Shown one piece after another: positions 658-36,060 of a DNA stretch of 56,022 bases. How positions within the stretch are numbered: position 1 is the stretch's first letter; the number at the start of each line of letters is the position of its first letter. Under the pieces are notes generated by a model. The model was given only the letters and a program-made list of their open reading frames with translations, did not search any database and was not told where the DNA came from. This stretch comes from a virus (Duplodnaviria > Heunggongvirae > Uroviricota > Caudoviricetes): IMG/VR virus record IMGVR_UViG_2534681672_000003, positions 1 through 56,022 of that record; one strand, 5' to 3'. The position numbers and the translations under genes are program-made.

Positions 658-664
658 CATCCAA

Positions 665-697
665 CCGCAGCACGTTCTTGCTTAAGACGTGCTGCGG
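665..697. terminator. 10-bp-stem hairpin between convergent genes (possible bidirectional terminator)
   Basis: CCGCAGCACG (665-674) pairs with CGTGCTGCGG (688-697). There is no clean U-tract on either strand. Confidence 0.3.
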
Positions 698-850
698 CAT
701 AATCCCAATGATTACTCCCTGACAGGGTTCGTAGGCCACTCAATATCAGGTGCAGTTGATGTATCAACACGGTTCAGCAACACCCGATACTTCTTCCAGG
801 CTTCCAGCAACGAGGTTTCTTCCTCCGTTGCATATACAGCTCACCTTTTT

Positions 851-1159
851 TCACCCACGATTAACCAACAGCCAGACCAGCAGACACGCCACCACCGGCA
901 CAGCAAAATCCATCAGACTTGCTACATCCCATGCACGTGGGTCAAAACCGCCCCACCACGGCATATTCATACGCTTGCCATGCCCGAACATTTCAATCCA
1001 GCGATATTCTGCCTGGGTATGTTCACGCGCAATGAAGAACGTACAACCGGCTATCGCCCCGTAAGCCCAGTTCCCGGTAAAAAGACCAATCAGTAGCTGC
1101 GCAGCCACAGCACAAAGCGCATGAAGGAAAGGTGTTATATCCATTTTCATCCTACCCAA
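851..1159 (-). CDS. hypothetical small membrane protein
   Basis: 102-aa ORF with hydrophobic segments (ALCAVAAQLLIGLF, VPVVACLLVWLLV). The start is uncertain; MKMD or MD internal starts are possible. Confidence 0.4.
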   Translation of the reverse strand: MGRMKMDITPFLHALCAVAAQLLIGLFTGNWAYGAIAGCTFFIAREHTQAEYRWIEMFGHGKRMNMPWWGGFDPRAWDVASLMDFAVPVVACLLVWLLVNRG

Positions 1160-1180
1160 TAAAACGGGGCGCTCGGCCCC
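1158..1180 (-). terminator. rho-independent terminator after the distal tail-fibre gene
   Basis: The minus strand reads GGGGCCGAGCGCCCC followed by GTTTTATT. Confidence 0.5.
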
Positions 1181-1186
1181 TTAATA

Positions 1187-2227: not shown

Positions 2228-2236
2228 TTTTCTTCC

Positions 2237-2518
2237 TCACATCCAGCCACGAAGTTGATGCTCAACAGCAACCACGTATTCATCGAATATTGACGATATT
2301 TGCGAATCATTAATGATGCGCACGTTTACAAAATATCCGTCTTCCTTAACACATACCGGTTCGCCATCTTCAGTCAGTTCTCCAGTTTCTTTGTACACAT
2401 TACCTATCACGTCAATAAGAATATCATCCTGCATCGACTCGTCATCATAATAGCCAATGCTCTCCATAAAGGCCGAAAAGTCGGCCCTGTCTGCAAATTT
2501 GAGTGTTAAATCTTTCAT
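2237..2518 (-). CDS. hypothetical acidic protein between the two fibre genes
   Basis: 93-aa ORF whose start overlaps the stf stop by 4 nt. No family was recognised. Confidence 0.45.
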   Translation of the reverse strand: MKDLTLKFADRADFSAFMESIGYYDDESMQDDILIDVIGNVYKETGELTEDGEPVCVKEDGYFVNVRIINDSQISSIFDEYVVAVEHQLRGWM

Positions 2519-4914
2519 TTAATACTCTCCCCCATTTGCGCATCAGTTAATTCTTTATGCCAGAGACGAAGATTTCTCAAATGGCCGAATAGATGACGAG
2601 TTCCCGATGTGGCTTGACCTCCAATTCGAATAAAGGTCCGTGTTTTTACGCCCGTCCACTCCGTTTTCATAGTTTTAGTAGCCTCACCGTTAGAAACTAC
2701 TCGTTTAGTACCATCAGAATAAATATTAAAACCACCAATGAATTTTCGAACATCAGTTCGACCAGCAAACACACTAGAAACGTAAGTACTTGTCGACGCT
2801 TTATAAGTTTGTATATAAAGCTGACCGTAACATTTCTCAGTTGTGTTAAAAGCGTATGTAATTGACTCAATAGGTGGCACACCAGAAAAATCAAAAATAC
2901 GCGGTGCTACATTAGGAGGAATATCGCCCCAATTTCTATTGACCTCGACAAGACACGTAAGCGGTCTATTATAGATATTATTTTCAGTTGGGATCGTCAC
3001 CATATCACTGGAGCGGGTTGCGGGTGCAGTTGTCGTAATAACAAAAGATGAAGCACATCCGCCGTTTTCAAATTGTGGTGTTGCAAGGTAAATATAATCT
3101 CCCGCTTCAGTTATACCACCTTTTTTCGGCGCATACTGAATCATTGCGCCAATTAAGGCTTCACCTTCAACAGCTTCTATAGTTGCCTCATAGAAAATCC
3201 ACCCTGTAACCGGATCTTTAGTTGCAGTAGCTGCTATTCTATTGGCTGCTCCGCCAGTTTTTTCTATTATCAGAGTTCCGAAAGTTAAATAAGCATCTCC
3301 TAAAAATGTATAAACCGACCCATCGTATTTTTCAAAACGCAAACGACAACGAAGACCATCAGGAGCTTTAACCCTGCATGAAACAGTGCAATACTTATTA
3401 TCGCCACTAACATCAATCCCCCGGGATGCACTGCATGTATGCAGACTAAGTGCAGATGATTGTCCTGTCATATTATCTTTTGTTCGCATTTTGGCATATG
3501 AAAAACCAAATTCATCAACACCATTATTAGTTTTATCGATATTGCTGGTACTCGTCCATTCAGCGGGAGTATTGGATTTAACAAAATAGTTAGTGCGCTG
3601 TCCTTCAATCAATAAACCTTCTTTTTCAAATCGTGGCTCATCAATTTTAGCAACACTAAATACGCCTGATTTATTGATATATGTGGCAGTTGATGCGCGT
3701 TTAAACTTAACAACCTTGTCGCCAGGCATCGTTATTTCATCATCACCAATAACAATTTTTTTATATGACGGCGAAAAGCCCGTAATCATATCCAGTGAAT
3801 CGTTAAACGGTATCCACACATCAGGCAGTGGCTGTAAGACATATTTATACGGCTCTGCTGCCTGACTTGCATACTCTCTGGCTGCGTCTTCACTTGCTTT
3901 AGCTGCTGTCTGGCTTGCTGCCGATGCTTTCGCCGAGTTCGCCGCTGCAGTCTCGCTTGTCTTTGCATTGGTTTCACTGGTTTTTGCCGCTTTTTGACTG
4001 TTGGCTGATGCAGTGGCAGAAGCAGCCGCCGCGCTTGCAGAACCAGCTGCCGCGCTCTCGCTTTGGGCTGCTGCAACCTGGCTGTTTTTCGCCGCAGTTT
4101 CGCTGGCTTTGGCATTCGTTTCGCTGGTCTTCGCTGCCGTCTGGCTGGACTTTGCGTTAGTTTCACTCGTCTTCGCAGCTTTCTGGCTGTTAGCCGCAGC
4201 AGTTGCTGATCCAGCTGCTGAAGTCGCAGAACCGGCTGCCGCGCTCTCGCTTTGGGCTGCTGCAACCTGGCTGTTTTTTGCCGCAGTTTCACTGGCTTTG
4301 GCATTCGTTTCGCTGGTTTTCGCTGCCGTCTGGCTGGACTTTGCGTTGGTTTCGCTCGTCTTTGCGGCTGTCTCGCTATTTTTCGCGTTGGTTTCTGATT
4401 TTTTGGCTGCTGTCGCGGAGTTTGCCGATGCAGTCTTTGAGGTCGCTGCCGCCTGTGCACTATTAGCTGCATTCGTTTCTGAGGTTTTCGCCGCGTTCTT
4501 TGATGATGCCGCTGCAGTTTCGGATTTCTTTGCCGCCGCTGCGCTCTGAGAGGCGGCTTCGGCGTTGCGTGCCACTTCTTCCACCATTGCCTCAAAACGA
4601 CGCAATGCCTCCGGCATGACATCATCTTCCGTCATGGCACCGAGAAAATCATTCAGCGTACCTGGTCTGGAGCCTTCATAGACGGTAATGGTCCCGGCAT
4701 GTGAAGGCGGAAAACCTTCAACCAGCAGGGTGACGCTGTACTGGCCATACTCAACATCCATGCTGTAACGTCCGGCTTCATCCGGATTTTCAGAAGCCAC
4801 CGTGTTCACCAGTACCGTGGTGCTGTTACGCTTTGCCTTCAGTTGAATAGTGCAGTTCTGTATTGGTTTTCCCGCACCATCTTTCAGCACACCTGAGATT
4901 TTTACTGCTGCCAT
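2515..4914 (-). CDS. stf: side tail fibre protein (lambda Stf-like N-terminus, divergent C-terminus)
   Basis: The N-terminus MAAVKISGVLKDGAGKPIQNCTIQLKAKRNSTTV... is collinear with lambda Stf. The ATG at 4914 follows a GGAG ribosome-binding site. The middle of the protein is an Ala/Ser/Thr/Lys-rich repeat. Confidence 0.85.
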   Translation of the reverse strand: MAAVKISGVLKDGAGKPIQNCTIQLKAKRNSTTVLVNTVASENPDEAGRYSMDVEYGQYSVTLLVEGFPPSHAGTITVYEGSRPGTLNDFLGAMTEDDVMPEALRRFEAMVEEVARNAEAASQSAAAAKKSETAAASSKNAAKTSETNAANSAQAAATSKTASANSATAAKKSETNAKNSETAAKTSETNAKSSQTAAKTSETNAKASETAAKNSQVAAAQSESAAAGSATSAAGSATAAANSQKAAKTSETNAKSSQTAAKTSETNAKASETAAKNSQVAAAQSESAAAGSASAAAASATASANSQKAAKTSETNAKTSETAAANSAKASAASQTAAKASEDAAREYASQAAEPYKYVLQPLPDVWIPFNDSLDMITGFSPSYKKIVIGDDEITMPGDKVVKFKRASTATYINKSGVFSVAKIDEPRFEKEGLLIEGQRTNYFVKSNTPAEWTSTSNIDKTNNGVDEFGFSYAKMRTKDNMTGQSSALSLHTCSASRGIDVSGDNKYCTVSCRVKAPDGLRCRLRFEKYDGSVYTFLGDAYLTFGTLIIEKTGGAANRIAATATKDPVTGWIFYEATIEAVEGEALIGAMIQYAPKKGGITEAGDYIYLATPQFENGGCASSFVITTTAPATRSSDMVTIPTENNIYNRPLTCLVEVNRNWGDIPPNVAPRIFDFSGVPPIESITYAFNTTEKCYGQLYIQTYKASTSTYVSSVFAGRTDVRKFIGGFNIYSDGTKRVVSNGEATKTMKTEWTGVKTRTFIRIGGQATSGTRHLFGHLRNLRLWHKELTDAQMGESIK
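3998..4370. repeat. about two tandem copies of a 189-bp (63-codon) unit inside stf
   Basis: GCAGAACC(A/G)GCTGCCGCGCTCTCGCTTTGGGCTGCTGCAACCTGG recurs at 4037 and 4226. The protein segment AAKTSETNAKSSQTAAKTSETNAKASETAAKNSQVAAAQSESAAAGSA is repeated. Confidence 0.8.
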
Positions 4915-17352: not shown

Positions 17353-18143
17353 TTACGCCAGTTGTACGGACACGAACTCATCAGGGTCAGCCAGCAGCAT
17401 CAGCGGTGCTGACTGAATCATGGTGAACTCACGCGCCGGATCGCCGGTGGTCACCCAGTTTTTCGGGTAGCGGGCAGAGGCGTTAATGCCTTCGCGCTGT
17501 GCGTCCGCATCCTGAATGCAGCCATAGGTGCGCAGACCGCGTGCCTGAGTGTTCCCCAGCACCATCGTGTTGTCCGGCAGGAAGTTCTTTTTGACGCCGT
17601 TTTCCACGTACTGTCCGGAATACACGACGATGGCCACATCGCCATACATTCCCTTATAGGACACCGCTTTGCCCAGGTCTTTTACCGCTGTCTCCAGCTC
17701 GGAATGAGAGCCGCGACGGGTATCCAGCTTCTCCCTGACGGCTTTGAAAGAACGGAACAGCGCCCAGCCTTTCGGATCAAACACGATGATATTCACCACA
17801 CCGCTGGCGTTCAGCGCGTAGGCTTCGATATCGTCTGTCGGGTCATACGTGGACTTGTCACGCTTGCTCCACTCCGTGCCGCCGGACTGCGTGATGTTAT
17901 TCGCCTCACTGCGGCCCATATCCACCTCAACCGGATCGAAGGCTTCACCGGTCATGGTGTATTTGCCCTTAAGCACGGCAGAAACTGCCTGCATCTCTTC
18001 GACCTGAGCAATGGCCAGCTCTTCGTCACGCATGTTCTGCATGATGATGCGACGGCGGCGGTAAGTCGGGTCCGCCAGATTCTGCGGATCTTCATCCGGC
18101 AGGCGACGCAGGGTCATCTGCGGATTCACCTCATGCTTCGGCT
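17353..18143 (-). pseudogene. E: major capsid protein E, 3' part (codons ~79-341), separated from its 5' part by the insertion
   Basis: The minus strand reads (K)PKHEVNPQMTLRRLPDEDPQNLADP...EFVSVQLA, collinear with the lambda gpE C-terminus. No start codon or ribosome-binding site is left at the break. Confidence 0.95.
18134..18143. repeat. left copy of the 10-bp direct repeat (att core) TGCTTCGGCT
   Basis: Identical to 29567-29576. It lies exactly where E homology stops. Confidence 0.9.
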
Positions 18144-18277
18144 ACATGAGTCAAATATGAAAGGATGTGAATGATTTGATTACGTTTTAGCTATAGAATT
18201 GAAATGGAAAATCCTTGAATGCAATACAACGTGCAATACATGGATGAAAACCATCACTCATTTAACAAGAGGAATCT

Positions 18278-19183
18278 ATGCGCTCACCCAACAGAATGCA
18301 TGAACGCTCAACATTTTATAAGTATATGTCGTTGAATACCGCGAAGATTGTTCTTGATTCATGCAGCCTTAGATGGAGTTCTCCGGTCCTATTTAATGAC
18401 CCTTTTGATGTTCCAAGAGAAGTTATGCCTGGTATTAACGAAATTAATATTGGCAAAGCTTTAGCCCGCAAGTTAATAGCGGAGTTGATTACCCCCAGAG
18501 AAGACATACAAAATTTAAACCCTAGAATTAGAACAATGCTAAGTGATTTCCAAAAGTCATTTCCTTTAGGCATACCCGCAGGATTAATTGAAAGATTTCA
18601 AGAAATGGTAAACATTCCACCAGTTGGGATTGGCGCTCCTGCGGCAATACAAGAAATGAAAGATGTCTGGCGAGGAATGCTTAATAACAGAAGGATTTTG
18701 TGTTTATCTGAGAGCCCTATAATCACTCCTATGTGGAATCACTATGCCGATAAATATAAAGGTATAGTTATCGAATTTGATTGTGTAGACTTTCTGGATA
18801 GCGCTTGGTTAATAGCCAAACCTATGAAATACACAGATGAAATGCCTCTAACTCACACTGCTGAAGGGATGGCCGAGTTGCTTTTCATGCCAGACAATAA
18901 GTCAATTGAATATATCAATAATGAGATAATATTCATAAAAACAGAAGAATGGGCATATGAAAGAGAGTGGAGAATTTCAACCTACGCTAGGCCAAATAGC
19001 ACTGGTCAATATAGCGACTTAAAATTTCACCCTTTTGAGTTAAAATCTGTAATACTTGGTCCTCTTTTTGATGCCAGCGAGTTCGATGAAGTCGCATCAC
19101 TAGTTAAGATGTATCCAAGAGCGAAATTATTTAAAAGTTCATTTGGGAACGACAGAAAAATATCCATAGTACCACTACCTTAA
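18278..19183 (+). CDS. cargo protein with a DUF2971-like N-terminal signature
   Basis: 301-aa ORF with a ribosome-binding site AAGAGG. FYKYMSLNTAKIVLDSCSLRWSSPVLFNDPFD resembles the DUF2971 family signature, by recall. The gene is AT-rich, opposes the core genes, and has its own terminator. Confidence 0.55.
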   Translation: MRSPNRMHERSTFYKYMSLNTAKIVLDSCSLRWSSPVLFNDPFDVPREVMPGINEINIGKALARKLIAELITPREDIQNLNPRIRTMLSDFQKSFPLGIPAGLIERFQEMVNIPPVGIGAPAAIQEMKDVWRGMLNNRRILCLSESPIITPMWNHYADKYKGIVIEFDCVDFLDSAWLIAKPMKYTDEMPLTHTAEGMAELLFMPDNKSIEYINNEIIFIKTEEWAYEREWRISTYARPNSTGQYSDLKFHPFELKSVILGPLFDASEFDEVASLVKMYPRAKLFKSSFGNDRKISIVPLP

Positions 19184-19213
19184 AAGGTCAAATGCTTTTG
19201 ACAAATAAAATCT

Positions 19214-19239
19214 ATCGCCAGTTTTACTGGCGACTTTTA
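19214..19239. terminator. hairpin plus T-run between the convergent cargo and Nu1-like genes
   Basis: TCGCCAG-TTTTA-CTGGCGA followed by CTTTT. Confidence 0.6.
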
Positions 19240-19289
19240 AGCAACAAAGAACCACCTAAGCACTCTTCCTACCTATGGTTTCATTTGTT

Positions 19290-19841
19290 TTAACTTCGCT
19301 GATTATCCTTGATATACCTTTCAGCCATATCTGGAATGTTATCTGAGATCTGGTAAGCTCGAATAAATGCTTTACTGACCTCCATCTTAATGAAGTCCTG
19401 ATACCGTTTTCCCATGCCAGGAAACTGTCGACAGATCGCAAGTGGAAGACTATCAATGATTGCTCCAACTTCCCCAGTTAATTTCGACAAGGCATAAGTC
19501 GCAAATGCAGTGTCAATTACCTCACCTGTTTCGCTGGCATTCTTCAGTTCCTGTGCGTCGGCCTGCGCACGCGTAAGTCGATGGCGTTCATACTCAATAG
19601 TCCCTGGCAGGAGATCTGCCTCGCTGGCCTGCCGCAGTTCTTCAACCTCCCGGCGCAGCTTTTCGTTCTCAATTTCAGCATCCCTTTCGGCATACCATTT
19701 TATGACGGCGGCAGAGTCATAAAGCACCTCATTACCCTTGCCACCGCCTCGCAGAACGGGCATTCCCTGCTCCTGCTAGTTCTGAATGGTACGGATACTC
19801 GCACCGAAAATGTCAGCCAGCTGCTTTTTGTTGGCTTCCAT
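19290..19841 (-). pseudogene. Nu1-like small terminase gene with an in-frame TAG at codon 22
   Basis: MEANKKQLADIFGASIRTIQN*QEQGMPVLRGGGKGNEVLYDS... The first ~100 codons are almost identical to the resident Nu1, and the C-terminal ~80 codons are divergent. The ORF track picks up only from M27 (19763). Confidence 0.8.
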
Positions 19842-20085
19842 TGTTCATTCCACGGACAAAACCAGAGAAAGGAAACGACAGAGGCCAAAAAGCCTGTTTT
19901 TAGCACCTGTCGTTTCCTTTCTTTTTAGGGGGTGTTTTTAATAAAAACATTAAGTTACGGCGAAGAAGAACGGAAACGCCTTAAACAGGAAAATTTTCAC
20001 AAATAGCGAAAAACTGCGCGCCTGACGCCCCGTAGCCTGTCAGATCGCCGGAAAGGACCCGCCAGCCAGAGCGGGCCCTAATTTC
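19842..20085 (-). other. satellite cos region (cosB-cosN-cosQ-like); predicted cosN 12-mer at 20019-20030
   Basis: Collinear, without indels, with the resident cos at 35829-36048. The 12-mer CGCCTGACGCCC replaces AGGTCGCCGCCC. Confidence 0.75.
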
Positions 20086-20086
20086 A

Positions 20087-20470
20087 TCAACCAATCAGCT
20101 TATAGCGACCATCCCGTGCATTGCGGCGTACACGCTCAATCTTGAGGCATAGCGCCGCATCTGGCTTTTTTGGGACAGGTACGCGGCAATATTCAGAAGC
20201 GCGAGGAATATTATTTATCCAGTCGATCACTTCACTTAAATACCAGGCCTTACGCCCTTCCGTAACCTGCACACGCTCCGGGAACTCTCCACTAGCCTCA
20301 AGGTTTAGCAGTGTACGACGACTCAGGGTTGTAATTTCCATCACCTGATTCATATCAACAAGGCGCTCGCTTAAACACATTTTGTCAGCGATAGCTTTTA
20401 ATTCCTCTACAGCTGGATTCGGGTACATCATTTCGGCAATTGGCTTAAGGTCATTGTAATCATTCTGCAT
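20087..20470 (-). CDS. AlpA/MerR-superfamily HTH protein with N- and C-terminal extensions
   Basis: 127-aa ORF. The core MEITTLSRRTLLNLEASGEFPERVQVTEGRKAWYLSEVIDWI fits the AlpA-family pattern. A GGGGGA ribosome-binding site is present, and the gene is tightly coupled behind the D-like gene. Confidence 0.6.
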   Translation of the reverse strand: MQNDYNDLKPIAEMMYPNPAVEELKAIADKMCLSERLVDMNQVMEITTLSRRTLLNLEASGEFPERVQVTEGRKAWYLSEVIDWINNIPRASEYCRVPVPKKPDAALCLKIERVRRNARDGRYKLIG

Positions 20471-20481
20471 TGTATCCCCCT

Positions 20482-20823
20482 TTACACACGAGCCAGCGGC
20501 TGAACAGAAATACCTGAGCCAACAAACGCTGCAACCTTTACTGACAGTTCTTTAACAGACTCAGGCCAGTTCAGAGCATCAACATTTAAGACACCTGTCT
20601 TATAGACCTGAGCCTGTGTTTTTTTCGCGGTGTCGATTTGTACAGCGGAAACATAAACCGCTTTACCTACGCTCGAACCATCCCATACCACCAGTGCACC
20701 TGTTGCATCTTCCTGCATCAGTGGCGTAAATGCAGGAATTACCCCTTTATTAGCTGAAAATATCCCCAGCGTAGTCACCAGTGCTTCAGTGCCAGCCATG
20801 AGTTCAGTGTAATGAGTAGCCAT
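20482..20823 (-). CDS. head decoration protein, lambda gpD-like
   Basis: 113-aa ORF. It aligns by eye with gpD at TPLM..LV.WDG..., YK.G..., WPE... and AF.G..IS. Confidence 0.65.
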   Translation of the reverse strand: MATHYTELMAGTEALVTTLGIFSANKGVIPAFTPLMQEDATGALVVWDGSSVGKAVYVSAVQIDTAKKTQAQVYKTGVLNVDALNWPESVKELSVKVAAFVGSGISVQPLARV

Positions 20824-20832
20824 TGCTCCCCC

Positions 20833-21873
20833 TTAGCCAATGCGAACGGTAACAAAACGATTGATGCGGGCCGGTATTGGCTGTGGTGCTGAATGTGTCT
20901 GCACATATTCAATAGCCGGATCACCAGGCACAATATAGTTTTTCGGTGCAAGTTCGGCTTTAGTCAGCCCCATTCGGATTAGCTCCGGATCCTGAATACC
21001 GCCATAGGCGACAATCCCCTGAAGAGCCGTATTGCCAAGCACCATCAAATCAGGATCAAGGAAATGTTTTTCTGTTCCGTCCTCGTCGGTATAACGCCCG
21101 CTGTAAACAACAATCGCAACATCGCCCATATACCCTTTAAAACTCACCGAATCACCAAGGTCTTTAAGGGCCGTTTCCAGTTCGGAATTAGAACCACGAC
21201 GGGTATCCAAAGCCTCTTTTATCGCTCTGAATGAACGGTATTTCTTCCATACATTACCACCCATAATGATGATATTAGTGACGCCCTCACTAAATTCTGC
21301 GTAGCTCTCAATATCATCATTTGGATCAAAAGTTTCTTTATCCTTACCTGACCACTCAGTACCGCCAGACTGAGTGATGATATTTTGTGGTTTTATATTC
21401 CAGTCCAGCTCATAACGTTCAATACCATCGCCCTCAATGATATTTTTCCCCGTTGTGATAGCCTGAACAGCAAGCCATTCAATACGTGCACGAATAGCTT
21501 TAGCCTGATTTACAATCGCCTGTTTAACTTTAATATTACGCGCCCCAAAAGCATTGTATTGCTCAGGTGACACACCAGCAGGGCGCACAGCTAACTTATT
21601 TGGATCAATGCTGCTTTTCGGCTTCATATAACCTGGACGAATTGTTTTTGATTCGTATCCCTCATCTCGTGAAACTTTACTGCCCACCATAGGAGAGCAA
21701 AACGCCGCGATCGGGATATTTGGATCGTCGATCGTATCAAGAATAATGTCTCTCGATTCAAACATTACCGAGCGAGTGAAAAACAAACTGGTAAACAACG
21801 CATTTAATTTTTTTTGTACATCTACAGCATTAACCACCTGTACAAGCTGAGTAGGCGAATATAAATCAACCAT
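20833..21873 (-). CDS. major capsid protein, lambda gpE-like (satellite-encoded)
   Basis: 346 aa from MVDLYSPTQLVQVV. Conserved blocks are QSGGTEWS..DK.T.DP.DDIE.YA and LDTRRGSNSELETA.KDLG..VS.KG..GDVAIVVYSG. AAGAGG lies upstream of the ATG at 21873. Confidence 0.85.
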   Translation of the reverse strand: MVDLYSPTQLVQVVNAVDVQKKLNALFTSLFFTRSVMFESRDIILDTIDDPNIPIAAFCSPMVGSKVSRDEGYESKTIRPGYMKPKSSIDPNKLAVRPAGVSPEQYNAFGARNIKVKQAIVNQAKAIRARIEWLAVQAITTGKNIIEGDGIERYELDWNIKPQNIITQSGGTEWSGKDKETFDPNDDIESYAEFSEGVTNIIIMGGNVWKKYRSFRAIKEALDTRRGSNSELETALKDLGDSVSFKGYMGDVAIVVYSGRYTDEDGTEKHFLDPDLMVLGNTALQGIVAYGGIQDPELIRMGLTKAELAPKNYIVPGDPAIEYVQTHSAPQPIPARINRFVTVRIG

Positions 21874-22069
21874 ACGCATCCTCTTTGCATTCATTAAAAA
21901 TAATTGTGGATATATGCTATCACCGATATTTGTCATGCGAACACATGCAACCGAGTGCAATGTTGTATAAAGTTTTGGGGTGACAACTTCAGTGCGGACA
22001 ATTAGTGTTAATATCTTCACTCCCTTTGGTCGGGATTTATGTAGCATGCAGGAAAATTTATTTTTTCCG

Positions 22070-22790
22070 GCCTTTTTGTGCACAGAAAACCCCCAGCTAG
22101 GCTGGGGGTTCCGGAAAGCTTTCAGCTTTGAGCCAGTTATTAAAACCCCTTTTGATTTGTTAAAACACTTTGCGGTCTGGCAACTGCAAGTGTCAAACAA
22201 GAAATCAAAAGGGGGTCCCAATGGGGAACGAAAAGAGCTTAGCGCACACCCGATGGAACTGTAAATATCACATAGTTTTTGCGCCAAAATACCGAAGACA
22301 GGTGTTCTACAGAGAGAAGCGTAGAGCAATAGGCAGTATTTTGAGAAAGCTGTGTGAGTGGAAAAGCGTACGGATTCTGGAAGCTGAATGCTGTGCAGAT
22401 CATATCCATATGCTTGTGGAGATCCCGCCCAAAATGAGCGTATCCGGGTTTATGGGATATCTGAAAGGGAAAAGCAGTCTGATGCTTTACGAGCAGTTTG
22501 GTGATTTGAAATTCAAATACAGGAACAGGGAGTTCTGGTGCAGAGGGTACTACGTCGATACAGTGGGTAAGAACACGGCGAAGATACAGGATTACATAAA
22601 GCACCAGCTTGAAGAGGATAAAATGGGAGAGCAGTTATCGATTCCCTATCCGGGCAGCCCGTTTACGGGCCGTAAGTAACGAAGTTGGATGCAAATGTCA
22701 GATCGTGTGCGCCTGTTAGGGCGCGGCTGGTAAGAGAGCCTTATAGGCGCATTTGAAAAACCTCCGGCTATGCCGGAGGATATTTATTTT
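22070..22790 (+). mobile_element. IS200 (IS200/IS605 family) copy; ends approximate
   Basis: tnpA is flanked by the characteristic hairpins CCCCCAGCTAGGCTGGGGG (left) and CCTCCGGCTATGCCGGAGG (right). The size is about 0.7 kb. Confidence 0.7.
22221..22679 (+). CDS. tnpA: IS200 Y1 (HuH) transposase TnpA
   Basis: MGNEKSLAHTRWNCKYHIVFAPKYRRQVFY...HIHMLVEIPPKMSVSGFMGYLKGKSS... is the typical 152-aa IS200 TnpA. Confidence 0.92.
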   Translation: MGNEKSLAHTRWNCKYHIVFAPKYRRQVFYREKRRAIGSILRKLCEWKSVRILEAECCADHIHMLVEIPPKMSVSGFMGYLKGKSSLMLYEQFGDLKFKYRNREFWCRGYYVDTVGKNTAKIQDYIKHQLEEDKMGEQLSIPYPGSPFTGRK

Positions 22791-22801
22791 ATTGGCAATA
22801 T

Positions 22802-23251
22802 TTAAAACGGGATATCATCTCCCCATTGCTCATTATCTCCCACTGGTGGCTGGCTTCCTTGCTGATCTGCCTGTTGTTTTGCTCTGTTCAGTGCGTCAGT
22901 AGCCTGCCCCTGTTGGCCTTTATTGCCGCCCGGTCGCACCGATCGCGCACTGATTACGCTGTCTGCGATAACCTGCCAGCCCTGCCGCGTTTCGCCGTTC
23001 TGTCCAGTCCACTGGCTCATCTGCATGTTACCCGCCACGCTCAGGAGTTCGCCTTTGTGATGCTTTGCCAGCGCGTCGGCTTGTCTGCCAAACGCCAGGA
23101 CAGATAACCACATCGTCGCCTGACCGTCATCCGACTGACTGCAGGGCAGTGATACCGCCATACGCGCCAACGTCATGGGGGTGCCCTTGCTGGTCTGTTT
23201 TGTCTGCGGGTCGTCCACCGACCGCCCGTAAACTGATATTTGCGCCGTCAT
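22802..23251 (-). CDS. ssb: single-stranded DNA-binding protein
   Basis: 149-aa ORF with an OB-fold-like N-terminus and a Gly/Gln-rich linker. It ends with the canonical SSB tip ...DDIPF. Confidence 0.8.
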   Translation of the reverse strand: MTAQISVYGRSVDDPQTKQTSKGTPMTLARMAVSLPCSQSDDGQATMWLSVLAFGRQADALAKHHKGELLSVAGNMQMSQWTGQNGETRQGWQVIADSVISARSVRPGGNKGQQGQATDALNRAKQQADQQGSQPPVGDNEQWGDDIPF

Positions 23252-23493
23252 GCGGCCTGCTCTCCGGACTTAATATTGATTGTTGTCACTTCCTCCGCTT
23301 CAGCAATCTCCCGTTCGGTCAGAGTGGCAAAGTTTGCAGCCGCCGTTGTCATGAATGCGCTAATCAGTTCGGGATGTGCTTTCGCGTATCCTTCCCCGGC
23401 GTTGCGGTCGATGATTTTTATCGACACCCTTAACCAGTGTTCCGTCAAATCAAGGGCGTGCGATTGTGATTTTTTTGTGTGCTTCGCTGTCAT
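23248..23493 (-). CDS. hypothetical protein
   Basis: 81-aa ORF whose stop overlaps the ssb start by 4 nt. It lies directly downstream of the origin repeats. Confidence 0.5.
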   Translation of the reverse strand: MTAKHTKKSQSHALDLTEHWLRVSIKIIDRNAGEGYAKAHPELISAFMTTAAANFATLTEREIAEAEEVTTINIKSGEQAA

Positions 23494-23544
23494 AGGCTTT
23501 ATCTCACAGCAGTAAATTAAAATTTTTGCGTTTTAACCCTTCAC

Positions 23545-23767
23545 CTGTTCACCTTTTGATATTTTCTCTTTTAATTCATAATGTTAATGGGTGAACAGTT
23601 TCACAAAAACTATTCACCAACTGTTCACCACTGTTCACCCTTGAAGCTCAATAAACAATCAAAAAGGTGAACAGTGAATAGTTTGGTGAACAGTTCATAA
23701 ATAACTGTTCACCCTATAATATACTGATATAAAAGATATTTATGACAGGGTGAACAGTGGTGAACAG
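23545..23767. repeat. satellite replication origin: iterons GGTGAACAG / CTGTTCACC with AT-rich spacers
   Basis: The perfect 9-mer occurs 5 times forward (23590, 23666, 23685, 23749, 23759) and 4 times inverted (23545, 23621, 23631, 23705), plus degenerate copies. The region sits just after the replication gene. Confidence 0.8.
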
Positions 23768-23780
23768 TTATTCCATAAGT

Positions 23781-25601
23781 TTAATTTTTGCTATCGTCAT
23801 TAGTGACCGATACACATGATGGCATCCAGTCTTCTGATTCCTCCGTCAGGGTCACGTTTGAACGCAAACCGTGCTTCGTTTTCCGTTTCATATACTCCCT
23901 GCCATATTCCGCCATTGCCCCCGGCATATCTTTACCGAAGCGCGTCAGTGTTACAGGTTTACCAAACCCATGTGCCCTCATATAAGCCAGATAGGCATGA
24001 TAGAGATACCTGCGTGGGCTGAATGGCACAATTTCAGCATTACCCACTAACAGGCCATCACACATTACCGATGCCATGAGATAACCGCAGAAGTCCACCA
24101 GCGAATCCCCCTCTCGCTTTATCGCCAGTGCTTCTTCAGATTTCTGCTGCTCATATAACAGGCGTCTGGCTTCGTCCTGATCAGCAAACCTTGTAAGCAG
24201 ATGACGAATCACTACCGCCAGCTCACCTTCTATTTTTTCCGCCAGCATCGAATCGCGTTCGTTCTCCGGTACAACTTCCGAAAAATTGAATATCACCCGA
24301 CGACGTGAGATCCCCCCGCTGCGGTCACTGAATGACATGGCGTTATTGTTAACCGCCAGCACTACTGCCGGAATACGCGTTGAATAGGGGGCTTTGTGTT
24401 TCGGGTCAATTGCCACCTTGTCACCGCCTGTAATGGCCTTAATCCCTGCCCCATCACCAGCGTAGCGGGTCATATCCGGCATGATAATCAGCGAAAAGCC
24501 AACCACTAACGCACGTTCCCTTGCATCTTCCAGCGCCTTCATGCTTGCTGATACTGTATTAGCCTTACCCGCCAGCATGGTGCAAATCTCCGCCATCACA
24601 CTTTTACCACTTCCCCCCGGCCCTGTTACCTCAATGAATAACTGCCAGTCGTACCGGTTCGCCAGCACCATGAATAATGCCGCCAGTACGCGATCTGCCT
24701 TGCGGTCATTCTCAGCCACCGAACGGCGCAACCACTTCCAGAAATTCGGCGCATGTGTTGCCAGCGTTTCCCCCTCTGCTGGTGGGCTGAAAGGTAATTC
24801 ACTGGCAATTAACAACCAGTCGTTTTTGTTATGCTCCCGAAAGTTACCAGTTCTGGTATCAAATACCCCGTTACTGAATCCAATCAGGTTACGGGCTGTA
24901 TTCCCCATTACAGGCAAACTTAACTTCATGGTATCTACCGCCGATTTAATAGCGTTCTGCGAATAGCTGATCTCCGCATCAATGAAAATCTGCGCCATAG
25001 CACGCTGTAACTCTTTATCCTGAACCGGCTCCCATACAACGCCGTTGTAATGATGAACGGTGTCAGAGTCGGCATTGATTGCCAGTTCGCCGCCGTAATG
25101 TGCAAGGAGAACTTCACCGCGCTGGCTGGCCCCCATCTGATTCAACGCCAAAGATGAAGCACGCTCGTCATTTTTGCGCTCAGCCTTCTTCACTGGCAGT
25201 TCAATCACCAGACTTTCCCCATGCTCCGCTTCAGCTTTTAGGCCGACAAGGCGCGGAGTCCAGTCTTCAGGCTCTCGATCAACAAAGCTACGGTAACAAC
25301 GTGCTTCCTTTACGCCTGCAATAGCAAGTAATGTCGCAACCTTCGTCAGACTTTTCTCTGCAATCTTTCCGGCACGATAAACACGCACATAATGACGGCC
25401 TTCATCGATAATTTGCATATCATCCAGGTTTTCCAGTTGTTCCGTACCCAGAATGACTGGTGGTGTATCATCTGCTGCAATATGCTTACCTGCCCATTCA
25501 TTCCATTCTTTTGCATGGCTCCAGGCATCACTGCCAGCAAAAATGATGACTTCCGTCATTTTGTCGCGCGGTTGGTATTTTAAGTTCGGAGCACGTTTCA
25601 T
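23781..25601 (-). CDS. replication protein: D5/P4-alpha-type SF3 helicase (primase-helicase family)
   Basis: 606-aa ORF with the Walker A motif GPGGSGKS. The surrounding pattern is typical of the phage/plasmid primase P4-family C-terminal domain. The ATG overlaps the upstream stop (ATGA). Confidence 0.8.
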   Translation of the reverse strand: MKRAPNLKYQPRDKMTEVIIFAGSDAWSHAKEWNEWAGKHIAADDTPPVILGTEQLENLDDMQIIDEGRHYVRVYRAGKIAEKSLTKVATLLAIAGVKEARCYRSFVDREPEDWTPRLVGLKAEAEHGESLVIELPVKKAERKNDERASSLALNQMGASQRGEVLLAHYGGELAINADSDTVHHYNGVVWEPVQDKELQRAMAQIFIDAEISYSQNAIKSAVDTMKLSLPVMGNTARNLIGFSNGVFDTRTGNFREHNKNDWLLIASELPFSPPAEGETLATHAPNFWKWLRRSVAENDRKADRVLAALFMVLANRYDWQLFIEVTGPGGSGKSVMAEICTMLAGKANTVSASMKALEDARERALVVGFSLIIMPDMTRYAGDGAGIKAITGGDKVAIDPKHKAPYSTRIPAVVLAVNNNAMSFSDRSGGISRRRVIFNFSEVVPENERDSMLAEKIEGELAVVIRHLLTRFADQDEARRLLYEQQKSEEALAIKREGDSLVDFCGYLMASVMCDGLLVGNAEIVPFSPRRYLYHAYLAYMRAHGFGKPVTLTRFGKDMPGAMAEYGREYMKRKTKHGLRSNVTLTEESEDWMPSCVSVTNDDSKN

Positions 25602-25885
25602 TTGTTACCTCCGGCAACTAACATTGCCCGAATTTTACGGATATAGCCTGCGGCACGCCTCTGATTATCTGTCTTGCAATTTTTTACCAGAATGAAATCT
25701 CTTTCGAACTGCTGACGCGGCATAACACATTCAAAATCATAACCATCACGCAAATAAGAGACACGACGATCATCAACCGAAATAATCTTTACCCGATAGC
25801 CATAGCTGTCTTTGAAAATATCCCCAAGGCTGATTTTTGAATGAGTTTGACCGCTGGCAATAAAGCCAGAAAATTTATTTTTCAT
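25598..25885 (-). CDS. DUF4222-like small protein
   Basis: 95 aa. The pattern Y.V.II..D..RV.Y.R.G...ECVM.R..F..DF..V matches the family signature by recall. Confidence 0.5.
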   Translation of the reverse strand: MKNKFSGFIASGQTHSKISLGDIFKDSYGYRVKIISVDDRRVSYLRDGYDFECVMPRQQFERDFILVKNCKTDNQRRAAGYIRKIRAMLVAGGNK

Positions 25886-25888
25886 TTT

Positions 25889-26113
25889 TTATTCTCCGGT
25901 ATAGCTCTGGTCGTGTATTTTTATAGCTTCATCCAGCTCTTTGATGACAGGATCAAGTAACGTAATTAACGCTCCAGCTAAATTAGCATCCCGTTCATCG
26001 TGTTCCGCATTTGTTGTCCCATCAAGCCAGGTTGATAAGATTTCTCGCATATTTTTGCCACAAACGAGCGCGTTTTCAGCATGTGTCAGCACTTTAAAAT
26101 AAAGATCATTCAT
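25889..26113 (-). CDS. hypothetical protein
   Basis: 74-aa ORF in the leftward operon. No family was recognised. Confidence 0.45.
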   Translation of the reverse strand: MNDLYFKVLTHAENALVCGKNMREILSTWLDGTTNAEHDERDANLAGALITLLDPVIKELDEAIKIHDQSYTGE

Positions 26114-26471
26114 GGCACACCTCCTGACGAATACGGGCGGCGAATATCATCACGTAGCCAGTTGGGAATTGCTGGCGGGCTTCCTGTTCGCTGGCGGCCT
26201 CGATGTGTATTACGCGTGGTTGTGCGGTGCTCAGGGCGATAAAACGCCAGATGAAATTGTTTTCGCATTTCTGAATAAACAGCGTGTTTTCTTCACGCCC
26301 TTTCCAGAAAGCCGCAGTATAGCCCATCTCCTTAACCATCTTGCGGGCATCAACCAGCGTGTCAGCGGCAACATGTACCGTAGTTGCTCCATCTGCCATG
26401 CGGTCGTGGTGTAGTGCCAGAAAGGTGTATATAAATTTAGGGTGAGTTTGGGTATGCTGTGTTCCAGCCAT
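26106..26471 (-). CDS. Icd-like (host cell division inhibitor-like) protein
   Basis: Start set at MAGTQHTQTHPKF with a GAGG ribosome-binding site. FIWRFIALSTAQPRVIHIEAASEQEARQQFPTGYVMIFAARI fits the Icd-like pattern, and a weaker first repeat lies upstream. Confidence 0.55.
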   Translation of the reverse strand: MAGTQHTQTHPKFIYTFLALHHDRMADGATTVHVAADTLVDARKMVKEMGYTAAFWKGREENTLFIQKCENNFIWRFIALSTAQPRVIHIEAASEQEARQQFPTGYVMIFAARIRQEVCHE

Positions 26472-26557
26472 AATCGTTACCTCGTTTAACGGTTTGGTTA
26501 GAAGCCCGGTTAGTGTTCGCGCACTGCCGGGTTTCGTCGTTTTTATGAATCGATCAT

Positions 26558-26660
26558 TGTGAGATACATAGCGACCATGATGTGAGATATACATTATAAT
26601 GTGGTGATATACATTGCAAGTGTTTTTATATCTCACTTTTGTGTATAGTGATATACACAT
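26558..26660. promoter_or_regulatory. divergent control region with repeated operator-like motif GTGA(G/T)ATA(TA)CAT
   Basis: Copies lie at about 26558, 26580, 26600 and 26646, with an inverted copy at 26627. The region sits between the leftward icd-like operon and the rightward RHH-like gene. Confidence 0.6.
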
Positions 26661-26679
26661 AACAAATTGGTGATTAACT

Positions 26680-26982
26680 ATGTCTGTATACAAAAATGCA
26701 AAATCGCAAATGACAACGATCAGGGTTCCCCACGATGTTATGGAGGGCATGGAATCCGTAAAACTGGACGGCGAAAGCAACGCCGGATTCATAGTAACCG
26801 CCATGCGCGGTGAGATCGCCCGCCGCCAGGCAGAAGGAAGCGGAGAAAATCCCCTCGTGTCTTCACTGGATGCCTTAGCTAAGGTCGAACAAATCGGCAT
26901 CAAGGCAGCGGAGGAAATCGGGCAACTCGTAGCCGTCGCTCGTGAAGAACTCCAGCGGCGTAAAGCCAAAGAATCTGAATAA
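26680..26982 (+). CDS. putative ribbon-helix-helix (CopG/Arc-like) regulator
   Basis: TTIRVPHDVMEGMESV...NAGFIVTAMRGEIARR fits a strand-helix-helix layout. The true start may be the internal M at MTTIRVP. Confidence 0.45.
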   Translation: MSVYKNAKSQMTTIRVPHDVMEGMESVKLDGESNAGFIVTAMRGEIARRQAEGSGENPLVSSLDALAKVEQIGIKAAEEIGQLVAVAREELQRRKAKESE

Positions 26983-27332
26983 TTACTATCAGCGCCGTGA
27001 TGTGAGTAACTACGGCGCATTGCTATGTAAATACTGGCAATAAACAGAAAAGGTAGTTCTACTCCGAATAATTTTATCTGACACTACTCCTGAACTAACA
27101 TGCGCTTATCTTACAGGATATAAATATAGATCCATAAAATCACGATTAAATAAAGCCGCTCCAAACATAAACCACACCCAACGCTTAACAAGATAGCAAC
27201 AAACAGATAAATAACTTGCAGAAATATTTATCGCAAGGATTATCATTATTAATTACAAATCACTTTACCAAGTCATTCCCCTCTCTTATCATAAAGAGAA
27301 AGTAATAAATAAGTTAAGGGAGTTAGAATACT

Positions 27333-27869
27333 ATGAATCTAAAAAAAATAGCCACAAACATAAAAAACAAGATAATAGAAACATTCAATAAACTTATATT
27401 AGAGGCATCTAAAACCCCCACACAAGATGAAATTAAAATACTTGAGAGAAGAAGTAAAAAGTTTAATTACTCCTTTTTCTCATACGCAGTCACAGGAGCC
27501 ATAATGGTTTTTTGCTCTCAACCATTAATAAAATACGCAAACCCAATGCTTATTTTATTGAGTGGTCTGTTACTGTCTATCATCATTATCCTTCTCAGAA
27601 TGATTTATATTTCACAAGCGAATGCATCATGGACAACCAAAAAACGTTCACATGTACTAGTTCATTTTCTTTCTGCATGTTTCATAGCGTCAACATTGAC
27701 GTTGTTATATCAGGCTTACGATAATAACATCACACACAAATTGTACTGTAAAAATATACAACAACTTATTGAAAAAAGGATAGAAACAGAAAAAAATATC
27801 AGCATATTCAGTGGGATGCAATGCACCCCGGCATATGATTACTCTTTATTTGGATTTAATCTCTTATAA
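27333..27869 (+). CDS. cargo membrane protein (about 3 predicted TM helices)
   Basis: 178-aa ORF in a very AT-rich block. The hydrophobic stretches are AVTGAIMVFCSQPL, LILLSGLLLSIIIILL and LVHFLSACFIASTLTLL. Confidence 0.55.
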   Translation: MNLKKIATNIKNKIIETFNKLILEASKTPTQDEIKILERRSKKFNYSFFSYAVTGAIMVFCSQPLIKYANPMLILLSGLLLSIIIILLRMIYISQANASWTTKKRSHVLVHFLSACFIASTLTLLYQAYDNNITHKLYCKNIQQLIEKRIETEKNISIFSGMQCTPAYDYSLFGFNLL

Positions 27870-27938
27870 AGAATGTTATTACTGATTTGAGTGCAAATTC
27901 TCAAATCAGTAATTCATAATATTTTATTCTGAGATAAT

Positions 27939-28166
27939 TTAAACTACCCACTCACCTCGAATCCATGCCTGCACTTCTGAAAGACGATATGCAACAGCAG
28001 TGGAGCCAATCTTGATCCGCTTAGGAAATTTCCCTTCCTTCTCCAGCTTCCAGCGTGTGCTGTTCGCAAGAGTGGTTAGCTCCCGACATTCTTTCTCACG
28101 GATCATACGATCGATGTTAGGAATGTACTCCAAACCCTTTTTATCAACAATCGCCATTTTTTTCAT
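27939..28166 (-). CDS. alpA: AlpA-family transcriptional regulator/excisionase
   Basis: 75 aa. IREKECRELTTLANSTRWKLEKEGKFPKRIKIGSTAVAYRLSEVQAWI is a typical Phage_AlpA HTH. The gene lies directly downstream of int. Confidence 0.8.
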   Translation of the reverse strand: MKKMAIVDKKGLEYIPNIDRMIREKECRELTTLANSTRWKLEKEGKFPKRIKIGSTAVAYRLSEVQAWIRGEWVV

Positions 28167-28167
28167 G

Positions 28168-29403
28168 TTAACCAGCCTTTTGTTTGAGGATTATCACTTT
28201 TGAATCAGCACCTGCGATGCTATTGAGATATGTAGTCCAGAGTTCCAGAGCATCCAGTTTTTTAGCCATAAACTTACTCCGGTTGTAAACACCTGCCACG
28301 CCAGGTAGCGCATGGCCTAACAGTTGTTCTACTACATAAAATTCAACACCGAGATCACTTAGATGAGTAGATAGCGTTCTTCTAAGGTCGTGTAGTGACC
28401 ATTGTTTTTCATGGCCCAAACGTTTACCGATTTTCCCCCCAATCTTGCTTACGCTTTCTCTAATTCGCAGACTTCCCAGCACATAACCAGTATGTTTTGT
28501 CTCTTCGTGAACATCCGTTACCCACTGTCGTAGAATTTCAGGTACTGGTCTGACGATTTCAACACCAGTTTTTGAGTGATCTTTTGGTACCGTCCAAACC
28601 CAACTTTCGAGATCCCATTCGCTCCATTCAGATAATCGGGCTTCACTCATTCGACATCCAAATACTGTACAAAGCACAAACATTTTTCGCGTGTATTCAG
28701 ACATTAGTTTTAAATCAGGCTCGACAAAAATTGCCTTCCAGAGCTGGCCCAGTTCGGCTTCATCCAGAACCCGATCCCGCTTACCTGCAATCTGCCCCAC
28801 ATCACTCATGCGCAAATCCTTTAAAGCATCACATGTCGCGTACTGGCGTACCCGACAAAAACGAAGAGCTAATTTAGTGTCAGAAAAAACATACGCCGCC
28901 ATAACTGGTGCATTACGTTTAATTCGGTCAAAACAGTCCAGCCATTCATATAGGTGAGTGTCATTTACAGGCAAATGACCGATATAGGGAAAGATATGCT
29001 TTCGAAATCTGCCAAGCGTTACAGCATGAGTTTTACGACGCACCTTACAGTAATTTTCATACCAGTAATTTAGTGCATCCTCCACTGTGACCGGCTTTAA
29101 GCGTTCTTCAGCCTGAATCTTAATCTGGATACGCGGATCACGTTTGTCAGCCAACCAACCACGGCACTCGTCGCGCTTTTCCCTTGCCTGTTTGAGTGAC
29201 ATATCAGGATATTTACCCAACGTTAGCCAGACCGGAGCAGCCCGGCCACCTGCTAACCTGTAGAAGAAAACAAAGCTCACAGCCCCCTTGGTACTCACAC
29301 GAATAGAAAGCCCCTTTCCATCAGCAATGGTGATCTGCTTTTCTCTGGGTTTCCCCAGATATCCTTTAAGCGCTTTGTCGCTCAGTTTGTTCTCGCCAGC
29401 CAT
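28168..29403 (-). CDS. int: tyrosine integrase, P4-type (DUF4102 arm-binding N-terminus)
   Basis: Start at MAGENKLSDKALKGYLGK. The N-terminus has GKGLSIRVSTKGAVSFVFFYRL, and the catalytic region has HDLRRT...LGHALPGVAGVYNR. The gene abuts the right att copy. Confidence 0.9.
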   Translation of the reverse strand: MAGENKLSDKALKGYLGKPREKQITIADGKGLSIRVSTKGAVSFVFFYRLAGGRAAPVWLTLGKYPDMSLKQAREKRDECRGWLADKRDPRIQIKIQAEERLKPVTVEDALNYWYENYCKVRRKTHAVTLGRFRKHIFPYIGHLPVNDTHLYEWLDCFDRIKRNAPVMAAYVFSDTKLALRFCRVRQYATCDALKDLRMSDVGQIAGKRDRVLDEAELGQLWKAIFVEPDLKLMSEYTRKMFVLCTVFGCRMSEARLSEWSEWDLESWVWTVPKDHSKTGVEIVRPVPEILRQWVTDVHEETKHTGYVLGSLRIRESVSKIGGKIGKRLGHEKQWSLHDLRRTLSTHLSDLGVEFYVVEQLLGHALPGVAGVYNRSKFMAKKLDALELWTTYLNSIAGADSKVIILKQKAG

Positions 29404-29566
29404 TTTTAGCCCCAAAAAGCAATACAAGCTGCAATACAGAGATGATTGCAACACACAGATAACGAGGAAAATTCAGTGAAAGCGCCAGATAAACTTATTC
29501 TTTATTATCAAAAGATTAAGTGTAAAAACCAGCAACTACACGAAAGCCTCAGAAAGCCATGCTAAG

Positions 29567-29576
29567 TGCTTCGGCT
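29567..29576. repeat. right copy of the 10-bp direct repeat (att core) TGCTTCGGCT
   Basis: Identical to 18134-18143. E homology resumes here. Confidence 0.9.
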
Positions 29577-29811
29577 TGACATATCCCGGCGTAAATTCAG
29601 AGGTGGAGCCGCCACGGGAACGGATAACCTCACCGGAAACAATCGGCGAAACGTACAGCGCCATGTTTACAAGTCCCGGAATTTGTGAGAGATAGACTTT
29701 CTCCGTAGTGAAGGGATAGCTCTCACGGAAAAAGAGACGCAGAAACAGCGGATCAAACTTAAATTTCTGCTCATTTGCCGCCAGCAGCTGGGCGGTTGTG
29801 TACATCGACAT
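29567..29811 (-). pseudogene. E: major capsid protein E, 5' part (codons 1-82)
   Basis: MSMYTTAQLLAANEQKFKFDPLFLRLFFRESYPF...EFTPGYVKPKH matches the lambda gpE N-terminus. The frame then runs into satellite DNA (LAWLSEAFV*). Confidence 0.95.
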
Positions 29812-35282: not shown

Positions 35283-35308
<26 letters not shown>

Positions 35309-35828
35309 TCAGCAACCCCGGTATCAGTTCATCCAGCGCGGCTGCTTTGTTCATGGCTTTGATGATATCCCGTTTCAGGAAATCAACATGTCGGTTTTCC
35401 AGTTCCGGAAAACGCCGCTGCACCGACAGGGGGATCCCGTCGAGAATACTGGCAATTTCACCTGCGATCCGCGACAACACGAAAGTACAGAATGCGGTTT
35501 CCACCACTTCAGCGGAGTCTCTGGCATTCTTCAGTTCCTGTGCGTCGGCCTGCGCACGCGTAAGTCGATGGCGTTCGTACTCAATAGTCCCTGGCTGGAG
35601 ATCTGCCTCGCTGGACTGCCGCAGTTCTTCAACCTCCCGGCGCAGCTTTTCGTTCTCAATTTCAGCATCCCTTTCGGCATACCATTTTATAACGGCGGCA
35701 GAGTCATAAAGCACCTCATTACCCTTGCCACCGCCTCGCAGAACGGGCATTCCCTGTTCCTGCCAGTTCTGAATGGTACGGATACTCGCACCGAAAATGT
35801 CAGCCAGCTGCTTTTTGTTGACTTCCAT
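35283..35828 (-). CDS. Nu1: terminase small subunit Nu1
   Basis: 181-aa ORF, MEVNKKQLADIFGASIRTIQNWQEQGMPVLRGGGKGNEVLYDS... Confidence 0.95.
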
Positions 35829-36060
35829 TGTTCATTCCACGGCCAAAAACAGAGAAAGGAAACGACAAAGGCCCAAAAGTTCGTTTTCAGCACCTGTCGT
35901 TTCCTTTCTTTTCAGGGGGTATTTTAAATAAAAACATTAAGTTACGACGAAGAAGAACGGAAACGCCTTAAACCGGAAAATTTTCATAAATAGCGAAAAC
36001 CCGCGAGGTCGCCGCCCCGTAACCTGTCGGATCGCCGGAAAGGACCCGTTGGCCGTTCTG
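35829..36060 (-). other. cos: resident cos site (cosB, cosN, cosQ); cosN 12-mer at 36006-36017
   Basis: The minus strand reads ...CGACAGGTTACG GGGCGGCGACCT CGCGGGTTTTCGCTATTTATGAAAATTTTCCGG..., which is the lambda cohesive-end sequence. Confidence 0.9.

Follow-up and report, generated by a model that had tools for sequence, protein, structure and literature searches.

The satellite-borne small terminase gene (terS) in the DNA studied here carries an amber codon at codon 22, and this TAG is probably a tolerated loss-of-function nonsense polymorphism (W22*) in the terS of a PICI embedded in its helper prophage. The window, which is the whole stretch of 56,022 nucleotides that was analysed, matches E. 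coli SCU-102 (NZ_CP051753.1) with 100% identity. The satellite terS frame belongs to the Phage_Nu1 family and occupies 19290-19841 on the minus strand, from the ATG at 19841-19839 to the natural stop at 19290-19292. It comprises 183 sense codons plus the stop and is broken at codon 22 (19776-19778, minus strand), where TAG stands in place of the ancestral TGG (Trp22); from the TAG to the natural stop the frame is open. The codons around the amber read ATT CAG AAC TAG CAG GAG CAG GGA ATG CCC, and the translation is MEANKKQLADIFGASIRTIQN*QEQGMPVLRGG... The resident helper Nu1 gene (nohD; 35283-35828, minus strand) is intact, with TGG at codon 22 (35763-35765) and GAA where the satellite gene has GAG. 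The initial annotation had described a satellite-borne Nu1-like gene with an in-frame amber at codon 22, a TGG to TAG change within the winged-HTH and an otherwise intact frame. This description is borne out by the reading of the sequence and by the TGG in both the resident Nu1 and the intact satellite alleles. The intact satellite alleles of 980-2 and 95-3322 differ from the TAG alleles of 382634_2f, MLI106K3, and 99RCEF only by G65A (W22*) in 552 nt. Because these intact alleles and the three TAG alleles are otherwise identical over this length, the change was a single TGG to TAG transition. We take codon 22 to lie in the recognition helix α2 of the wHTH, as in the 1J9I structure.

We propose that W22* would knock out the full-length small terminase of the helper-embedded PICI, and that the knockout would be tolerated because terS is likely an optional and largely redundant accessory. 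Recognition and cleavage of the satellite cos would fall to the helper terminase, with no need for the satellite protein. The allele would have originated a single time, on one cos-terS haplotype. Satellite transfer, recombination, or both would then have carried it into other satellite backbones and helper prophages, and it would be too young, in sequence terms, for visible further decay. RefSeq labels the gene "terminase small subunit, internal stop", and this PGAP pseudogene call is independent of ours. The interrupted gene is thus already flagged by RefSeq, and the satellite family is already described. The added value here is the population picture of a single-origin knockout in about half of the terS-bearing elements, across helper prophages.

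The satellite is an HE-PICI of about 11.4 kb (18134-29576, minus strand). Its helper is a minus-strand lambdoid prophage with cos, Nu1/nohD, A, W, portal, protease, D, E, FI, and the tail genes to J. The satellite ends are a 10-bp direct repeat, AGCCGAAGCA, found at 29567-29576 and 18134-18143. The satellite interrupts the helper major capsid gene E, leaving a 5' fragment of 246 bp (29566-29811, minus strand) and a 3' fragment of 789 bp (17353-18141, minus strand), which overlap at ...KPKH. Excision at the 10-bp repeat would be predicted to restore the helper gene E. The gene is split by a co-oriented satellite both here and in six other genomes. The satellite contains genes for an integrase, an HTH protein, an Icd-like protein, DUF4222, a primase, SSB, and an IS200 transposase, together with an E-like capsid, a D-like decoration protein, an AlpA-like HTH protein, cos, terS, and DUF2971. 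When the RefSeq annotation is compared with the published family description (PMC10111431), the four-zone order is matched: integration (Int and AlpA/HTH), Bro/regulatory, replication (primase and SSB), and late.

The HE-PICI family includes the type element Eco567.11capE of strain NRG857c (Tommasini, Mageeney & Williams 2023, PMC10111431). Like the window element, 11capE is a satellite of about 11 kb that sits co-oriented in gene E of a lambdoid prophage, with the same 246-bp and 789-bp E pieces and the 10-bp att identity block, which was reported for the E:Phage_cap_E group (PMC10111431). The integrase, HTH, regulatory zone, primase/SSB, and late zone follow in the same order. The late zone has its own E-like capsid, D-like decoration protein, AlpA-like HTH, and cos, and the satellite cosN is identical. 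The two elements differ in that 11capE has a 64-aa stub with HEPN/DUF262, whereas in the window element the terS frame is full-length (W22*) and followed by DUF2971, with an IS200 present as well. Among the E:Phage_cap_E HE-PICIs, excision has been shown for 11capE only, and no particles were recovered. The terS amber allele is not mentioned in that paper (PMC10111431), and we found no mention of an amber or pseudogene terS in HE-PICIs in the literature searched.

Two further features of the element vary between relatives. The slot downstream of cos/terS holds DUF2971 in the window (18278-19183) and HEPN and DUF262 in NRG857c (NC_017634.1, locus L023 10279-12253); this slot beside attR looks like a variable accessory or defence-gene slot. 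An IS200C-family transposase gene (about 22170-22679, plus strand) lies between the satellite SSB and capsid genes. It is absent from the seven other satellites with annotation across this interval (MLI106K3, 99RCEF, LST200A, 980-2, ECA64, NRG857c, and A37) and is therefore an extra insertion in the window copy, where it may disturb late-zone transcription.

The distribution of the amber codon was examined by megablast with a 55-mer centred on the A of the TAG and a 28-base exact word, so that TAG carriers alone seed a match. TAG was found in 17 of 5,426 complete genomes, and every match was in a satellite terS. Among the 32 complete E. coli genomes with the satellite-specific 3' half of terS, these carriers account for 17. 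The 157-aa ORF that starts at Met27 exists solely where the TAG is present and hence serves as a marker of the allele. In a collection of 15 billion proteins, gene callers predicted the exact window protein (G144 form) on 70 contigs, the E144 form on 162 contigs, and the Q78 form on 11 contigs. The ORF is therefore found on at least 243 public contigs, compared with about 350 contigs for the 183-aa forms.

The initial annotation had noted that a sequencing error would remove the finding. Because the same TAG occurs in 17 independent assemblies and on at least 243 contigs, a read or assembly error in this genome is practically inconceivable; the 17 complete assemblies share the TAG haplotype and come from different laboratories, hosts, and continents. 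The comparison of the site across related elements also indicates that the TAG is not private to one strain, given that 17 of 32 terS carriers have it. The earlier suggestion of a recent inactivating mutation is thus kept in part. The knockout is the reading we consider probable, but a private and recent event does not agree with an allele present in about half of the terS-bearing elements and at four chromosomal sites. A frequency of about 50% in several helpers is above the expectation for a deleterious mutation and is compatible as well with an allele that is neutral, beneficial, or functional.

The same distribution bears on the possibility that the allele is leaky, a hypomorph in which basal UAG readthrough or an amber-suppressor tRNA provides enough full-length TerS. 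Small amounts of terminase may suffice in general. However, a search of the window for a tRNA gene that could act as a local suppressor found none, and seventeen unrelated hosts would all need a suppressor. The stop is also not conserved, as 15 of the 32 genomes are without the TAG, and no recoding signal is evident beyond a weak hairpin. We regard the leaky allele as very improbable. A programmed readthrough or recoding site was likewise rejected: all six of the six non-TAG alleles examined have TGG, and a conserved recoding site is excluded because about half of the family (15/32) lacks the TAG.

The TAG alleles appear to have one source. All seven aligned TAG loci have one haplotype in common between -159 and +72, counted from the ATG. 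This haplotype includes a second SNP at 19926 (minus strand), 85 nt upstream of the ATG at the I1/R2 edge of cosB, which is A here and G in all intact alleles. In the 12 genomes compared, this SNP is fully linked to the TAG, with A in 7/7 TAG loci and G in 5/5 TGG loci. The single haplotype and its private -85 SNP indicate a single origin of the TAG. The context of the SNP in the satellite cosB is CT[A]AAAAGAAAGGAAACG, and the change could be plain hitchhiking or could affect TerS or IHF binding. Outside the -159 to +72 core, the TAG occurs on at least two flanking backgrounds, and the TAG carriers are not grouped over the late zone, indicating that recombination moved the allele.

Four TAG composites were examined in full for their chromosomal sites. 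The SCU-102 composite lies beside ompT, that of MLI106K3 beside zinT, that of 99RCEF in icd, and that of LST200A at the Qin/ydfJ site. The helper tail regions among these four differ by 1.3-5%. The regulatory and replication modules of the satellites also vary; for example, the primase gene is 1,821 or 1,752 bp. The four sites and the divergent helpers indicate that the TAG elements, or at least the cos-terS segment, moved horizontally after the mutation. Clonal expansion was rejected for the complete genomes on the same four composites.

Tolerance of the knockout is consistent with the rarity of terS among related elements. The satellite-type cosN region was found in 97 complete genomes, and terS in only 32. 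In 11capE of NRG857c, the terS frame diverges after about codon 13 to leave the 64-aa stub, which is followed by the HEPN and DUF262 cargo. The authors described 11capE as lacking terS and presumed packaging via the helper cos machinery (PMC10111431). From these comparisons, terS appears to be optional in this HE-PICI family, and it appears largely redundant with the helper Nu1 in most of the hosts examined.

The cos regions suggest how the helper may substitute. The satellite cos (19842-20056, minus strand) was aligned with the resident cos, and its cosN 12-mer is GGGCGTCAGGCG (20019-20030, minus strand). The helper cosN is the lambda sequence GGGCGGCGACCT in every helper examined, with the resident copy near 36006-36017. 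The two cosN differ at 5 of 12 positions, and the satellite version is invariant in 12/12 aligned satellites and in the 11capE of NRG857c. Because of this difference, the cohesive ends of satellite and helper would be non-complementary, and the helper TerL would nick a different sequence. The satellite cosB is of the lambda type (R3, I1, R2, and R1) and nearly identical to the helper cosB, and terS lies directly downstream of cosN and this cosB, as in a lambda-type small terminase. In five of six helpers examined, the Nu1 DNA-binding domain is the same as that of the satellite protein, and the cosB R-sites match. Since the DNA-binding domain and cosB are near-identical, we infer that the helper terminase can act on the satellite cos when no satellite TerS is made. 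HE-PICIs of this type could then dispense with a small terminase of their own, at least when the helper has a matching cosB.

The MLI106K3 helper (NZ_CP117020.1) is the sixth case. It has a different Nu1 N-terminal domain and a different cosB, whereas the embedded TAG satellite keeps the lambda-type cosB; with this mismatch the satellite should be unpackageable by its own helper. The MLI106K3 genome has other lambda-type Nu1 copies at three matching places. In this strain, the dead terS would not be obviously redundant with the helper Nu1.

The loss could also have been adaptive, if the intact TerS is costly in some helpers, for example by competing at cosB yet binding gpA poorly. In the C-terminal 40 residues, the TerL-binding region in lambda, only 11/40 are identical to Nu1, in agreement with such a cost. 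The high allele frequency in several helpers and the independent loss of terS in 11capE-type elements would also fit. On the other hand, the helper Nu1 C-termini and gpA N-termini are of the same type in four TAG and two TGG hosts, and it is with the atypical MLI106K3 helper that an intact lambda-type satellite TerS should be beneficial rather than harmful. An adaptive knockout is therefore improbable in our assessment. Incompatibility with the helper terminase was rejected as a determinant of the allele, as the Nu1 C-termini, gpA N-termini, and cos in these four TAG and two TGG hosts showed no association.

The protein encoded by the satellite gene is a mosaic. With Trp22 restored, it scores 271 bits on PF07471, for which the cut-off is 30 bits (E=3e-81), and Phage_Nu1 is the only Pfam family found on it. 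Residues 1-98 align to 6HN7 and residues 1-68 to 1J9I with one or two differences, so the N-terminal wHTH domain is present and is here cut by the TAG. Residues 1-102 are identical to the resident Nu1 at 99 of 102 positions, whereas residues 103-183 are only 35% identical. The gene thus resembles that of lambda Nu1 (PF07471; 1J9I and 6HN7) in its N-terminal half and in its location directly downstream of cosN-cosB. It differs in its divergent C-terminal half, in the cut at codon 22, and in having no TerL gene after it. A large terminase gene A directly following or overlapping the satellite terS is absent, and the satellite encodes no TerL. Downstream of terS come DUF2971, on the opposite strand, and then attR. 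No phage source closer to the satellite C-terminal half was found by tblastn in 50,697 phage records, where the best match was lambda Nu1 with 73% identity overall.

Across the 32 genomes that carry it, the satellite-specific C-terminal half shows at least 99.2% identity. In A37, the same C-terminal half is joined to a different N-terminal domain, which matches a different cosB. This chimeric terS (NZ_CP029327.1, locus L024 2142-2908) has its junction near the conserved EADL(L/Q)PGTIEYERHRLTRAQADAQELKNA. The A37 satellite has the variant N-terminal domain and variant cosB together with a helper-type cosN, and this type of N-terminal domain and cosB is the one found in the MLI106K3 helper. Both presumably resemble those of phage 21. 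The A37 chimera indicates that cos and the DNA-binding module were swapped with helpers by recombination and that the C-terminal half was kept. The conservation of this half, and its retention despite the N-terminal swap, suggests that the intact satellite TerS does something satellite-specific. The TAG and TGG elements would be a natural allelic pair for asking what the C-terminal half does.

All of the satellite-specific C-terminal half lies downstream of Met27. A 157-codon ORF from Met27 is present in the ORF list (19290-19763, minus strand), in line with the earlier proposal of a 157-aa product, and could give an N-terminally truncated protein. An AGGAG Shine-Dalgarno-like motif (19770-19774, minus strand) follows just after the TAG, 6 nt before ATG27 (19761-19763). 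The sequence at the restart is UAG-C-AGGAG-CAGGGA-AUG, with ATG27 12 nt after the stop. The predicted pairing with the 3' end of 16S rRNA is -6.6 kcal/mol at ATG27, compared with -3.3 at ATG1. Given the AGGAG, its 6-nt spacing, and the 12-nt distance from the stop, translation of the 157-aa form by reinitiation or de novo initiation is plausible, and the product may well be made. A product without selected function is the default expectation.

By the domain map reviewed in PMC9026076, and with codon 22 placed in α2, the Met27 product would lack α1 and α2 and would retain the wing, α3, the central oligomerisation region, and the C-terminal half. The initial annotation had expected that half of the HTH would be lost; both HTH helices would in fact be gone.

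An active role can be imagined for this protein. The truncated TerS (residues 27-183) may co-assemble with the helper Nu1 and modulate or interfere with the terminase in an Rpp-like manner. Ribosomes that end at the TAG would be placed to reinitiate, at a site with stronger pairing than the native start, and the product would contain residues 27-102, which are near-identical to the helper Nu1, and the whole of the satellite-specific half. The C-terminal half is conserved across satellites with differing N-terminal modules, and the allele is frequent and has spread. Rpp also offers a precedent of a PICI protein that heterodimerises with the helper TerS (PMC9026076).

Several observations reduce the appeal of an active Met27 product. 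The AGGAG motif, which depends on the GAG at codon 24, was considered as a compensation for the TAG and rejected, as the intact satellite alleles and about 930 nohD/nohA copies share the 55-mer with TGG. Because the motif is older than the mutation and widespread in ordinary Nu1 genes, it is not an adaptation to the stop. In the mRNA fold prediction, a small and modest hairpin partly sequesters the Shine-Dalgarno motif and the AUG of ATG27; the z-score of -3 belongs to the 171-nt region around ATG27 and is not site-specific. Residues 11-13 of Nu1 helix α1 contribute to the dimer interface of the DNA-binding domain (PMC9026076), and this helix is missing from the truncated form. A general poison of the terminase would block satellite packaging too, and two thirds of the cos-bearing relatives do without terS.

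The substitution pattern is a further point against an active product. Outside evident recombination blocks, the changes on TAG backgrounds are E144G (in the window), S73C, D179N, and N180K. None of these four is synonymous, and three fall in the C-terminal half. For codons 27-183, neutrality predicts 77% nonsynonymous changes, so that four out of four has P=0.35. With an expected nonsynonymous fraction of about one third, the binomial P is about 0.01; the one-third value is our own estimate for a dN/dS near 0.15, and the binomial alone was computed. The intact alleles have one comparable event, nonsynonymous and in the 3' half, which is too few for a real contrast. The pattern leans towards relaxed constraint in the TAG lineages.

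No second disruptive lesion was seen in the terS of TAG carriers. This absence says little because each lineage has 0-4 further substitutions in the gene. The initial annotation had linked a plain pseudogene to decay of the rest of the gene in relatives. Such decay is not visible as further lesions, but the four nonsynonymous changes are consistent with it. As a separate observation, the TAG-carrying satellite of LST200A (NZ_CP110858.1, locus L012 9462-9911 and 5729-5995) has an SSB gene with an internal stop and another fragmentary pseudogene, indicating wider decay in at least one TAG lineage.

On balance, an active Rpp-like truncated TerS is unlikely, though it is the strongest of the rivals to the tolerated knockout. 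The dominant interfering TerS of the initial annotation gained no support from the computations made here. Its more specific form, in which a headless, DNA-binding-deficient TerS biases or throttles the terminase via its C-terminal half and so could explain the presence of the allele in about half of the elements, is less likely again. If true, an active Met27 product would represent a novel means of satellite interference with the helper terminase.

The comparison with Rpp of EcCICFT073 (Fillol-Salom et al. 2019, reviewed in PMC9026076) extends to the gene position directly after the satellite cos, the wHTH, and the TerS-like fold, and the satellite protein could plausibly pair with the helper TerS as Rpp does. 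By its description, Rpp is set apart by its own DNA specificity and by a PICI cosB without lambda R-sites (PMC9026076), whereas here both the DNA-binding domain and the cosB, with R3/R2/R1, are of the helper type. The SaPI small terminase offers another parallel, in which a satellite-carried TerS works with the helper TerL. SaPI-specific packaging depends on this TerS, which recognises a distinct pac site. In the element described here, by contrast, satellite and helper share their recognition specificity, and most relatives can do without the gene.

The near-identity of the satellite and helper modules is also visible at the DNA level. The 5' cos-Nu1 sequences of the satellite (19290-20056) and the helper (35283-36043) form direct repeats of about 500 bp with about 96-97% identity, about 16 kb apart. 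Satellite alleles contain variants, such as A3V, L78Q, and Y84Y, that coincide with helper alleles and resemble gene-conversion tracts. The homology between the two cos-Nu1 repeats could also allow the TAG to be repaired or the intervening DNA to be lost.
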